DNA of 64,000 nucleotides from Nitrosopumilus sp. (GTDB lineage: Archaea > Thermoproteota > Nitrososphaeria > Nitrososphaerales > Nitrosopumilaceae), in NCBI GenBank assembly GCA_963662625.1, contig OY759726.1, positions 1,760,001 through 1,824,000 on the forward strand, in the 5' to 3' direction. The position numbers were made by a program, and so were the translations under genes. Of this stretch, positions 21,534 through 50,493 are shown piece by piece. The notes under the pieces are model-generated. The model did not search any database and was not told the origin of the DNA. It worked only from the letters and a program-made list of their open reading frames with translations. The first letter of the stretch is position 1, and each line of letters starts with the position of its first letter.

Positions 21534-21607
21534 TGCCAGGGGCGGGATTTGAACGCGCGACAGCTCGGTCTTCAGCCGAGTGCTCTCCCGGGCTGAGCTA
21601 CCCTGGC
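21534..21607 (-). tRNA. tRNA-Phe (GAA), intronless
   Basis: GCCAGGG/CCCTGGC acceptor stem, CTCGG-CTGAAGA-CCGAG anticodon arm, TTCAAAT T-loop. Confidence 0.95.
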
Positions 21608-47953: not shown

Positions 47954-47981
47954 TTAGGCCATGCGCGTACCAGAACCCAGT

Positions 47982-48377
47982 ATGCTATTCGGGAAGAAGT
48001 TCGAACGGCAGGTCTCCCTGCAGAGGGACGTCCTAGACAGCATACTGTCATACTGCAAGATGAAGCACCCTAACGAGGGGATCCTGATCCTGAAGGGCAA
48101 GTCCAAGAAGGGCGACATCAGGGTGGACGGCCTGGTGATCCCCCCGTTCAACTACACGGGCCCCACGTTTGCCGGCTTCCCGCACTCGTTCCTGCCGTTT
48201 GACATGAGCTACGTCGGCAGCGTCCACTCCCACCCGAGCGGCTCTGCGGACCCCTCGATCACCGACCTGCACAACTTCTTCGGGCTGGTGTCGGTCATAG
48301 TCAAGGCCCCGTACGAGGATGAGGACGTCTTTGCGTGGGACAGCGGGGGCAAGCCCATCAGGATCGACATAGTCTGA
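47982..48377 (+). CDS. JAMM/MPN+ metalloprotease
   Basis: HPNE...VHSHPSGSADPSITD. Confidence 0.92.
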   Translation: MLFGKKFERQVSLQRDVLDSILSYCKMKHPNEGILILKGKSKKGDIRVDGLVIPPFNYTGPTFAGFPHSFLPFDMSYVGSVHSHPSGSADPSITDLHNFFGLVSVIVKAPYEDEDVFAWDSGGKPIRIDIV

Positions 48378-48617
48378 CGGCCCCGTCGTGCGTCCTTGGG
48401 GCGCCAAAGTGGAACAGCGTGGCCGCGACGCGCTGGCGGACGTGCCCTTGGCTGGGTACTCGCACCCCCCGACGGCCGCTCCTACGAAGCGTTCCTCCGG
48501 GCGCTCGTGCTCCAAACCGTGGGCATCGAGTGCTTCCCGCACGTCGTCCGTGGCCACGTCAGGCCATAGTTTCCCAGCAGCTTCCGGGCCGTCCTGGAAG
48601 CGGTCGTCGTTTGCCAT
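48378..48617 (-). pseudogene. Orphan ORF behind hammerhead A, apparently truncated
   Basis: MANDDRFQDGPEAAGKLWPDVATDDVREALDAHGLE...; frame runs antisense into the JAMM gene until 48048. Confidence 0.4.
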
Positions 48618-48665
48618 GCGACGCCGCTCGCGGCGTTTCGGCCACCGGGGCCTCATCAGGCAGGC
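48613..48665 (-). ncRNA. Type I hammerhead ribozyme A
   Basis: GCCUGC CUGAUGA GGCC ccggu GGCC GAAA CGCCG cgag CGGCG UC^ GCAuGGC. Confidence 0.9.
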
Positions 48666-48685
48666 TGTCTGGGCGTCTTTCAAAA

Positions 48686-48693
48686 ATTAAATA
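48686..48693 (-). promoter_or_regulatory. TATA-like box for ribozyme A
   Basis: TATTTAAT 21-28 nt upstream of the ribozyme 5' strand; identical in both copies. Confidence 0.55.
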
Positions 48694-49341
48694 CTCGGGG
48701 GTCCAACATCAGGTGGTGGGGGCTCAGCTGGACTTTAGTCCACCTACTCTTCATCTCCAGATGAAGGGATTAGCAGTGCCAAGTTTTCATCATCGCCCTC
48801 ACCATCCAAGCCAGTCCCATGGGACGGCCATCCCAAATCGAACACTAAAATAACTCCGGGGCCTCCTGAAGGTGGCGAGGGGTCAGATCTGACAGTCATC
48901 ATCACAATGATGATCAGAAGCCGTTCTCATCATCCCCCTCGCCCGGTTCACCCGGCACTTGCCGGGAAATGCCGCCAACCGGCGTGACTGCCGGACCAAT
49001 TCCGGCGTGAAAACGTGAAAGGAGACGTCTTGCGTGAGACAAGACACATGGAAGAAGGCACGTAGGATGTCTCGTGTGGCATAAGACGCGGCGCCATGGT
49101 GACACTTTGGCATGTTAGATGGGGGTTTACTAGGGTCCGATTTTGTGTTTGGTGTTTTGTTCCTGTTTTGGTTGGAACGCCCACCATAACCGCGAAGGAT
49201 ACTAGGGAGTTCGGGTTTTGTCGGAGCCCGCAGACGTCCTCCCCCGCAGGGTATATGGATCGCGCCGTCCCGGGGTTGCCAACGGGGCCACTGGCTGCCG
49301 GCGCGGCCGCGCCCGCGGCGCTCCTTGAACGACATGGACCG

Positions 49342-49968
49342 TCAGTCGAACAGACTGTAGAGCTGGCTGTCTGTAAGACGTGGGGCTTCGCGGGTCTCGG
49401 AGCACATGTTTGACACGTACCTGCCGTGTTCCGGAAGGTAGATGCCCTTCCCCGGAACGTATCTCCCGATGCCCTGCAGTATGCGGGCGACATCCCCTTG
49501 AGAGTGGCTCTCGGCCACTGAAGTTGCCATGGATCCCCTGCCGGGGGTTTCGCCCATCCAGGGCTCCTCAGCATGGCTTCGTTTGGTAAAAAAGGGGGCG
49601 GCTACCGCCTGCCGCCCATGCCGTCCCTGAGCCTTTGCCAGTGGGCCTTTTAGGTCCCACGACCTTTTTGGCGCAGAACTCGAGCCGCCGGAGGACCCCG
49701 CGGGGGAGGCACTCTTCCAGGTCAGACCTGGACTCCCCCGGAGCAGCTGCTCCAGAACCGCCTTGCACTTGGCCGGCCCCATGGCTTGGAATTGCTCCCT
49801 GTACCAATCGGAACCGTGGAAGTCCGGCGGGTTGCAGAACTGGCACTCCTCCCCGTACTCGTCCCCGCGGGGATTGACGTGGTCGTGCGCGTCCGCTTGA
49901 TCCTTTTCGATCAGTTTGGCGGCCAGCAGGTAGTGCTCGACCACCCGAGCCGATGGGAGTTCCCCCAT
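49342..49968 (-). CDS. Orphan ORF, possibly the frameshifted continuation of 49911-50195
   Basis: HDH...CQFC motif; overlaps the upstream ORF at a G5 run. Confidence 0.45.
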   Translation of the reverse strand: MGELPSARVVEHYLLAAKLIEKDQADAHDHVNPRGDEYGEECQFCNPPDFHGSDWYREQFQAMGPAKCKAVLEQLLRGSPGLTWKSASPAGSSGGSSSAPKRSWDLKGPLAKAQGRHGRQAVAAPFFTKRSHAEEPWMGETPGRGSMATSVAESHSQGDVARILQGIGRYVPGKGIYLPEHGRYVSNMCSETREAPRLTDSQLYSLFD

Positions 49969-50195
49969 CCGGTGCCGATTGGATTCCCGGAGCCTACGTC
50001 CGTCAGTACGTCGCCGTCACTTATGGCGACAACATCGTTCTTGCAATAAAATTTGCGGGTTCGGCCCTCTGGGCCGGCTTGGGCGCGTACGGCGTCGTCG
50101 AGGCCTAGCCTCTCCTGTACGTGCTTGCAGACGCTTTTGGTTAAGAACGTCCTACCTCCTATGGAGATTTGCTTCATGACTGTTTGTTCTGCCAT
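49911..50195 (-). CDS. Orphan ORF behind hammerhead B
   Basis: MAEQTVMKQISIGGRTFLTKSVCKHVQERLGL...; AUG lies inside ribozyme stem I. Confidence 0.5.
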   Translation of the reverse strand: MAEQTVMKQISIGGRTFLTKSVCKHVQERLGLDDAVRAQAGPEGRTRKFYCKNDVVAISDGDVLTDVGSGNPIGTGWGNSHRLGWSSTTCWPPN

Positions 50196-50243
50196 GCGAC
50201 GCCGCTCGCGGCGTTTCGACCATTCAGGTCTCATCAGGCAGGC
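50191..50243 (-). ncRNA. Type I hammerhead ribozyme B
   Basis: GCCUGC CUGAUGA GACC ugaau GGUC GAAA CGCCG cgag CGGCG UC^ GCAuGGC. Confidence 0.9.
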
Positions 50244-50263
50244 TGCCTGGCCGTCGTTCAAAA

Positions 50264-50271
50264 ATTAAATA
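50264..50271 (-). promoter_or_regulatory. TATA-like box for ribozyme B
   Basis: TATTTAAT at the same spacing as in copy A. Confidence 0.55.
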
Positions 50272-50493
50272 CTCGGGGATCCAACATCCGGTGGTGGGGG
50301 CTCAGTTGTCACGGCTTGAAGATGTCTCATCATTTGCGCCATGTCAGACTTTCACTGGAGTACAGCGTCGGCACTGGCATCATCATCATCGCCCTCACTG
50401 GCATCATCATCGCCCTCACCATCCAAGCCGGATCAGATGGGAACGGCGCGGTCGACAAAACTTTATAAGGTTTTTGACGGTAGTTGCAGTGGA

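Follow-up and report, generated by a model that had tools for sequence, protein, structure and literature searches.

To our knowledge, the natural roles of DNA-encoded hammerhead ribozymes (HHs) outside rolling-circle replicons are largely unproven. Here we describe HHs in a 64,000-nucleotide (nt) stretch of the genome of the archaeon Nitrosopumilus sp. (GenBank assembly GCA_963662625.1, contig OY759726.1, forward-strand positions 1,760,001 to 1,824,000), hereafter the window, and compare them with the closest systems described so far. The genome is one contig of 1.86 Mb with 63% GC, and coordinates are those of the window unless they are given as genome positions. We judge it somewhat likelier than otherwise that three motifs in the window are type I HHs in a Nitrosopumilaceae-wide arrangement, in which a start codon lies in the 3′ strand of stem I and the cut frees a nearly leaderless mRNA.

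One archaeal precedent is HHphage of the haloarchaeal viruses HF1 and HF2, which lies 13 nt before a start codon and just upstream of the first open reading frame (ORF) of its transcript; the mapped 5′ end is no more than 3 nt from the predicted cut, and the HH was suggested to act in gene expression (PMC3088659). In the accessible text of that report, HHphage has a variant core with insertions, is viral, and is described with neither an upstream C/D box small RNA (sRNA) nor a leaderless product (PMC3088659). The Nitrosopumilaceae HHs differ from it in having the AUG inside stem I, 1-2 nt from the cut, and in residing in cellular chromosomes. The same report (Perreault 2011) gives HHs “at least three representatives in archaea” and places many bacterial ones near integrases or prophages (PMC3088659). 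Bacterial and phage type I HHs (RF00163) share the fold and the core of the HHs described here but differ in stem I, the 3′ strand of which is cuggAu in the Rfam consensus, without an AUG.

Fungal and plant RNA viruses also have type I HHs, in their 5′ untranslated and intergenic regions, and there self-cleavage was shown to be required for translation to start; one intergenic HH, which makes a subgenomic RNA, has its cut 7 nt ahead of the ORF2 start, and viral type I HHs without loop-loop contacts cleave in vivo (Lopez-Galiano et al. 2026, PMC13725137). These resemble the archaeal HHs in being type I and in having no obvious loop-loop contacts, but they belong to eukaryotic viruses with cap-independent translation and have the start codon outside the ribozyme, and the accessible text of that report mentions neither archaea nor leaderless messages (PMC13725137). 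The same logic has been applied by hand: in man-made constructs, a HH placed before the AUG strips off the RNA ahead of it and leaves a leaderless message with a 5′-OH (PMC11698992). According to the same source, the 5′-triphosphate of a leaderless mRNA mimics a −1 base in S. solfataricus (PMC11698992).

As far as the accessible text of these sources goes, in none of the closest published cases is the start codon part of the ribozyme, the product leaderless, the host a cellular archaeon or a C/D box sRNA located upstream. Our literature search, which had supplements (Perreault 2011 Dataset S1, archaeal HH list) outside its range, returned nothing that links HHs to Nitrosopumilus, Cenarchaeum or Thaumarchaeota, and nothing usable on leaderless transcription starts in Nitrosopumilus.

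Type I hammerheads on the minus strand

The first-pass annotation of the window had proposed twin HHs, read on the minus strand of a direct repeat of 119 base pairs (bp) with 12 mismatches. The repeat is real (48612-48730 and 50190-50308, 119 nt, 90% identity, 12 mismatches), each copy is well formed and folds as a canonical type I HH, and the proposed cleavage after 48620 and 50198, with AUGs at 48617 and 50195, holds in its coordinates as predicted cuts. What does not stand is the number two, as a third HH between the twins had been overlooked. The three HHs of the window are:

48613..48665, minus strand: HHa_A, type I HH; predicted cut between 48620 and 48619; AUG 48617-48615 inside stem I
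49526..49577, minus strand: HHb_W, type I HH with a CUGAGGA core; predicted cut between 49532 and 49531; AUG 49530-49528
50191..50243, minus strand: HHa_B, type I HH; predicted cut between 50198 and 50197; AUG 50195-50193 inside stem I

In the HHa type, the 5′ strand of stem I, GCCUGC (48665-48660 in copy A), is followed by the core sequence CUGAUGA (48659-48653), a stem II of 4 bp with a 5-nt loop, GAAA, and stem III, ACGCCG-cgag-CGGCGU. Next come the C at the cut site and the 3′ strand of stem I, GCA(U)GGC, with the U of the AUG forming a bulge; counted past this bulge, stem I has 6 bp, and the predicted cut sits 2 nt ahead of the AUG. Stems II and III are closed by loops and stem I is open, which is the three-way junction of a type I HH. 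An A-rich 3′ flank is conserved. As the first-pass annotation had pointed out, the two ribozymes differ at six positions, four of them in loop II and two that form one compensated stem II pair (G-C versus A-U), and comparison of the two copies places the end of their homology directly past ATGGCA. HHb_W, between the twins, has a perfect 6-bp stem I, GCCAUG/CAUGGC, and its predicted cut is 1 nt ahead of the AUG of ORF2, a frame of 62 amino acids (aa).

Two further copies are found in a paralogous locus at genome 148770-150289, which is 93% identical to the window locus over 994 nt and holds a third HHa (HHa_C) and a fully canonical HHb paralog (HHb_C, genome 148966-149004). The core is invariant in 5/5 copies of the genome (CUGAUGA, CUGAGGA or CUGACGA, with GAAA), and the A15.1-U16.1 pair, the C at H17 and the G10.1-C11.1 pair are likewise present in all five; the cleavage triplet is GUC in the three HHa copies and in HHb_C, and AUC in HHb_W. 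Stem lengths I/II/III by descriptor are 3/4/6 in HHa_A and HHa_B, 3/4/7 in HHa_C and 6/4/6 in HHb_C. When the five copies are aligned, 95.3% of cells are paired and three pairs show double changes. A descriptor scan of the genome returned four sites with a stem I of at least 3 bp; six dinucleotide-matched simulated genomes contained no such site and 0-2 weaker matches each, and the HHs are therefore more than chance would give. Covariance model R1 scores HHa_B at 84 bits, HHa_A at 81.6 bits and HHb_W at 74.8 bits.

The start codon in stem I across the Nitrosopumilaceae

A covariance model made from the genome’s own five copies found HHs in contig C31 of G002, of the same genus (five copies), and in G029, of another genus (two copies); relatives are given here by our working labels. 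The Rfam model RF00163 scores the G002:C31 relatives at 35.4 bits, which passes its threshold, 33.8 bits and 28.2 bits. With a pattern that leaves stem I free, CTGANGAGN{9,13}CGAAACN{5,30}GTC, run over 401 Nitrosopumilaceae genomes, 15 distinct sites emerged in 8 genomes; a reversed-pattern control gave 11 matches. Thirteen of the 15 sites, from 6 genomes and 3 genera, fold as HHs, and the sites in G020 and G149, which have no stems, were rejected. An AUG (12 cases) or a GUG (1 case) stands at +1/+2 after the cut in 13/13 folded HHs, a count made on family copies that are related by descent and hence not independent. The first-pass annotation had said beforehand that its proposal would fall if other copies had no consistent AUG and ORF after the cut; both recur in relatives, with real ORFs behind the codon.

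The sequence around this codon is not fixed. Stem I reads GCCUGC/GCA(U)GGC, GCCAUG/CAUGGC, GCCAUC/GAUGGC, GUCAUU/AAUGAC, GCCAUA/UAUGGC, GCCAUA/UGUGGC or GACAUG/CAUGUC, and CCAUAA/UUAUGG in a G002 copy that was found with the model only. In an alignment of 20 HHs, which was fitted to the model and contains five rows picked by ATG-containing patterns, pairing holds in 93.2% of cells and compensatory changes occur at 11 of 16 pairs; none of 500 shuffles reaches any of these measures, and controls in which the alignment was slid are 27-39% paired. The A-U pair 36-70 (A15.1-U16.1) is present in 20/20 sequences. The stem I pair next to the cut, 10-73, varies (AU 8, CG 4, GC 4, UA 1), and the A-U pair formed by the AUG stays the same in 16/16 paired cells, with HHa retaining the U of the AUG as a bulge. 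The stems covary, and the pairs of the AUG do not.

Behind the codon, several relatives have the same gene. In G297 (two copies), G345, G376 and G029 the AUG opens a conserved membrane protein of 223-234 aa with a staphylococcal nuclease (SNase) domain and an N-terminal hydrophobic segment. Pfam PF00565 (cut-off 21) scores 23.6 bits in G297, 31.5 bits in G029 and 20.9 bits, just under the cut-off, in G345; the G376 protein was placed in the family by its near-identical N-terminus and its ORF length and not by a Pfam scan. Orthologs are also found without a HH: in G382 the protein has the same MAKQFIKRTL start and GGAGG stands 6 nt upstream instead, and in G314 the gene has another conserved leader, motif X (see below). 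One start codon is therefore served by three upstream devices, a HH, a GGAGG or motif X.

The host genome also has the promoter geometry that would be expected of leaderless genes. AT-rich 8-mers ahead of 904 well-placed ATGs peak at −31/−30, with 153 and 149 counts over a background of ~16-50, which fits leaderless mRNAs as the norm. The premise of leaderless translation, made in the first-pass annotation, agrees with this TATA-to-ATG spacing.

Outside the Nitrosopumilaceae, contigs of Woesearchaeota type carry a type I HH that begins 0 nt after the stop of a conserved 82-83-aa ORF and exactly fills the space up to an ORF of 211-214 aa. On their sequences these contigs are a second, independent case:

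L047, 3472-3527, minus strand: Woesearchaeota-type HH; AUG 1 nt past the cut
L115, 6568-6631, plus strand: Woesearchaeota-type HH; AUG 1 nt past the cut
L117: Woesearchaeota-type HH; AUG 1 nt past the cut

Returning to the window, the frames behind the three HHs are:

49602..50195, minus strand: ORF1, window copy, follows HHa_B; first frame 94 aa, ends at 49911
49342..49530, minus strand: ORF2, 62 aa, follows HHb; intact in both loci; GC content at codon positions 1/2/3 0.60/0.47/0.71
48048..48617, minus strand: ORF-A, nominally 189 aa, follows HHa_A; no stop until 48048

ORF1 and ORF2 have coding-like GC content at codon positions 1/2/3 (0.65/0.41/0.77 and 0.58/0.44/0.73), and neither matches a Pfam family. 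A word-based search with ORF1 returned its own paralog only, and a full HMMER search against 1.84 billion representatives returned that paralog and one repeat protein with a common PPDFRG-DWYR peptide; we treat ORF1 as an orphan on the strength of these searches.

Upstream RNAs, mechanism and competing explanations

The sequence upstream of the HHs contains the following elements:

48876..48941, minus strand: sRNA1, C/D box sRNA-like; Rfam snoPyro_CD 35.1 bits, E 6.7e-5, at 48880-48937, below the gathering score of 45
48853-48844, minus strand: TATA-like box GTTATTTTAG ahead of sRNA2
48715..48803, minus strand: sRNA2, C/D box sRNA-like; boxes and terminal stem read; weak Rfam C/D matches at 48722-48797
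48686..48693, minus strand: AT-rich box TATTTAAT, copy A; followed by TTTTT; 20 nt to the HH; first base at −28 from G48665
50470-50461, minus strand: palindromic TATA-like box CCTTATAAAG upstream of sRNA2′′
50293..50420, minus strand: sRNA2′′, C/D box sRNA-like; C, D′, C′ and D boxes and a 9-bp terminal stem read
50264..50271, minus strand: AT-rich box TATTTAAT, copy B; followed by TTTTT; 20 nt to the HH
49588..49593, minus strand: T6 tract past the ORF1 stop, 10 nt ahead of stem I of HHb; resembles a terminator

Scores of snoPyro_CD are 16.8 bits for sRNA2′′ (at 50370-50414) and 27.9-33.8 bits in G002, all of the latter below the gathering score. The D box and the 3′ stem of sRNA2′′ fall within the 119-nt repeat, and the repeat begins 3 nt ahead of the sRNA D box; the repeated unit is therefore the 3′ end of the sRNA, an AT-rich spacer, the HH and ATGGCA. 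A C/D box sRNA-like gene ends 44-58 nt upstream of 3/3 HHa copies, of four of the five G002:C31 HHs, of both G297 copies and of the G376 HH. Judged by this comparison, the conserved unit is a C/D box sRNA-like gene, a spacer, the HH and the AUG, not a promoter, the HH and the AUG.

The unit appears to have entered a conserved neighbourhood, and a single gene marks one border of the insertion:

47961..48377, plus strand: conserved Prok-JAB gene (Pfam PF14464, 3.4e-11)

Three complete relatives (G003, G029 and G297) have JAB, p160 and p103 side by side, so the stretch from ~48378 to ~50436, which separates JAB from p160 in the window, is a roughly 2-kb insertion that carries the sRNAs and the HHs. 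No HH and no C/D RNA was found within 1.5 kb of JAB in five relatives; the contigs of two same-genus genomes stop just past JAB and so fall outside this flank comparison. A DNA search with the 1.76-kb module against 61 relatives returned its own copies and one weak sRNA match only.

These features suggest the following mechanism. The HH would be transcribed within a longer RNA, together with a C/D box sRNA and a gene (HHa type) or with an upstream ORF and a gene (HHb type). Once folded, it would cut itself after the C of the GUC or AUC triplet, and the short 6-bp stem I would fall apart to give a message that starts N-AUG or NN-AUG with a 5′-OH. The cut would turn an internal, otherwise unreadable AUG into a 5′-proximal one, in an organism that seems to initiate mainly on leaderless messages, and the one or two retained bases could substitute for the absent 5′-triphosphate as a −1 base.

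If this is correct, an archaeon that does not routinely use Shine-Dalgarno sequences would have a way to express genes that lie behind another RNA on a transcript, and the biogenesis of a C/D box small RNA and of an mRNA would be linked in one precursor. Ribozyme insulators for mRNA 5′ ends are used in synthetic biology, and the archaeal HHs would be their natural counterpart. The mechanism bears on whether archaeal ribosomes accept 5′-OH messages with a −1 base, and the anatomy makes one HH role directly testable, as the product would be a nearly leaderless mRNA in a lineage with leaderless initiation as the norm. In the ammonia-oxidising archaea, which are plentiful and difficult to work with experimentally, such a compact and predictable signal for RNA processing would also serve as a practical tool. 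More tentatively, and short of calling it probable, we propose that leaderless archaea, namely the Nitrosopumilaceae and, independently, DPANN archaea of Woesearchaeota type, use HHs against an internal cistron problem: the start codon would sit in stem I, a 5′-OH N-AUG message would be released from an sRNA/gene precursor, a −1 base would replace the 5′-triphosphate, and the sRNA, ribozyme and gene would form a movable cassette that inserts into conserved neighbourhoods.

The first-pass annotation had favoured a portable promoter-ribozyme cassette. As an autonomous unit, this would have TATTTAAT start a transcript at the first base of the HH, with cleavage trimming a leader of ~47 nt and the upstream sRNA being separate, which we consider unlikely. 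The AT-rich box is conspicuous at 63% GC, is identical in all three HHa copies, and has its first base at −27/−28 relative to the beginning of stem I, a spacing that lies in the shoulder of the genomic distribution and within its observed range of −36 to −26; the upstream sRNAs, moreover, own TATA-like boxes ~30 nt ahead of their 5′ ends. The modal spacing of −31/−30, however, would start the transcript at 48662/3, within the 5′ strand of stem I of HHa_A, leaving a stem I of 3 bp, and the T5 after the box could equally be an sRNA terminator; the box could be a TATA box that drives the HH transcript, an oligo-T terminator that ends the sRNA, or serve as both. HHb lacks a box of this kind and has no room for a promoter, given the T6 tract 10 nt before its stem I and after the ORF1 stop, so that transcription must read through from ORF1 to reach it. 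The nearest AT-rich box in G297 and G376, located by eye, ends 10-14 nt before stem I, too close for a start upstream of the HH, and a gene with its own promoter needs no ribozyme to be leaderless. The portable promoter of the earlier proposal is unproven. The HH might also be a brake or insulator, its 5′-OH RNA being poorly initiated or differently degraded, or it might form the 3′ end of the sRNA with the AUG coupling secondary. In S. solfataricus, a 5′-OH leaderless mRNA binds the 30S subunit less well than the triphosphate form, and the 5′-OH makes the initiation complex less stable (PMC11698992); by analogy, these data are the main argument that cleavage might lower expression. The conserved link to an upstream sRNA and a G029 HH without an ORF behind it point the same way. 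Yet the position of the AUG is invariant while neighbouring stem I pairs covary, which sRNA 3′-end formation alone does not require, and HHb and the Woesearchaeota-type copies have no upstream sRNA; we find a brake or a 3′-end former quite improbable.

The HHa pair also invites comparison with a mobile retrozyme- or viroid-like element, in which two HHs would excise a unit-length RNA with 5′-OH and 2′,3′-cyclic phosphate ends, a ligase would circularise it, and the insertion and its paralog would record its spread. The tandem direct HHa copies do bound a 1578-nt unit, with homology ending 8 nt past the cut, the block is a ~2-kb insertion into conserved JAB-p160 synteny, and a second copy stands at ~149 kb. 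But HHb would split this unit, other genomes have single HHs before an ordinary protein gene, and the insertion showed no reverse transcriptase or Rep gene. No excised or circular form was found in DNA contigs of four runs from two studies, in which contigs break at repeats and offer no informative joint. A non-coding HH-bounded unit of this kind was rejected, as the 1578 nt hold ORFs, sRNA genes and the third HH; an integron-type cassette was rejected as well, the tyrosine recombinase family PF00589 matching nothing across the full 1.86-Mb genome at E <= 0.001 and matching all control genomes. To such a mobile unit we give the least credence of all. Scarcely more credible, in our judgement, is that the window copies are what is left of a duplicated cassette, decaying and now inactive, regardless of the family's role elsewhere. 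Window ORF1 is frameshifted by three 1-nt deletions when set against its paralog, which is intact (198 aa) in the 149-kb locus only, and the ORF1 paralogs differ at 8/10/2 sites at codon positions 1/2/3, which is not a purifying pattern. HHb_W carries a C.A mismatch at 15.2-16.2. ORF-A overlaps the conserved JAB gene in antisense from 48377 downward, and a search with its first 80 aa returned no homolog; it is probably not a gene. Against decay, HHa_A and HHa_B each retain an intact core and three intact stems, their stem II change is compensated, and ORF2 is intact in both loci.

A number of observations weigh against the preferred reading, that these HHs release nearly leaderless messages from longer precursors. 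With the defects just listed, the window copies look partly decayed, and the orphan genes of the first-pass annotation are accordingly half right: ORF1 is an orphan by the searches made, but it is frameshifted in the window, and ORF-A is doubtful as a gene. Folding energies, which cover HHa_A and HHa_B, divide the pair: the minimum-free-energy fold of HHa_B is the HH fold, at −21.6 kcal/mol, whereas in HHa_A the HH fold (−22.4 kcal/mol) competes with a non-HH minimum-free-energy fold that is 3.2 kcal/mol more stable (−25.6 kcal/mol). Inspection by eye shows no convincing tertiary contact between loop II and stem I. The Rfam check that had been suggested at the outset failed: the gathering-level Infernal run matched none of the HHs, and E-value mode found one of the three, at 20 bits. 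Across the window and own-genome copies, RF00163 Hammerhead_1 gives 19.9-20 bits, below a gathering score of 34 that is an operational cut-off and not a structural feature; routine annotation would therefore miss these HHs.

Further points of this kind come from relatives and from outside the family, besides the S. solfataricus data and the shared descent of the family copies. The G029 HH with a GUG is followed by a frame of only 11 aa, two G002 HHs are followed by only 26 and 39 aa, and the SNase orthologs of G382 and G314 manage without a HH. Patterns that force ATGG(C) retrieved bacterial or viral loci in which only 2-36 aa follow the ATG (9/9), and four archaeal loci with 39, 214, 234 and 234 codons after it. 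Among 14 well-folded metagenomic HHs (of 37 loci), nine have at most 10 codons after the AUG and five have at least 57. In organisms other than these archaea, stem I may therefore contain an AUG merely incidentally.

Other elements near the hammerheads

Motif X is a conserved, RNA-like element of ~70 nt, the leader that stands in for a HH before the SNase-like gene of G314 and of G000 (our label for the genome of the window). It consists of a U-tract, GUGACCUGRCAAUCCUUCCAAACCNG, a variable hairpin and then CUGACAGGCAGNCNGGUGUGGGAAAGG, and has covarying helices. It recurs between genes of HH-bearing islands, and its sites are G000:C1 ~145020-148735 (minus strand, four copies), L046 (G029, six), L045 (G002, at least two), L124/L148 (G314), L122 and L123. 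Motif X has no Rfam match and is not present in the window.

Two neighbourhoods of family HHs were inspected by eye. Beside the five sRNA-HH-ORF units of G002:C31 (L045, 3232-7999, plus strand) lie an ORF of 1213 aa with an NPPW methyltransferase-like motif and then a helicase-like ORF, and the neighbourhood looks like a restriction or defence region. In L064 (G345), the sequence before the HH-SNase gene, upstream of 1501, resembles the C-terminal part of a DDE/rve-type transposase and not a C/D box sRNA.

Marine metagenome contigs (L084, L092, L093, L096, L099, L103, L106, L110 and L090) have AT-rich type I HHs with the stem I GCUAUA/UAUGGC and a long stem III. Mostly 7-10 codons follow the AUG in this group, and two of its copies lie 10 kb apart on one 97-kb contig.

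Within the window, the sole gathering-level Rfam match is a tRNA gene (21534-21607, minus strand). The sRNA1/sRNA2 region (48791-48943) has a 76%-identical copy on the opposite strand at genome 1742855-1742998, ~17 kb upstream of the window, so the C/D sRNA family has further members. The best-conserved part of the duplicated module is a non-coding element, in which we found no Rfam match and no obvious ORF:

49117..49313, minus strand: conserved non-coding element of 197 nt between ORF2 and sRNA1; 97% identical to genome 150092-150289

Just past the ORF2 stop, a 41-nt stretch (49299-49339) matches genome 205715-205755, on the opposite strand, at 95%.

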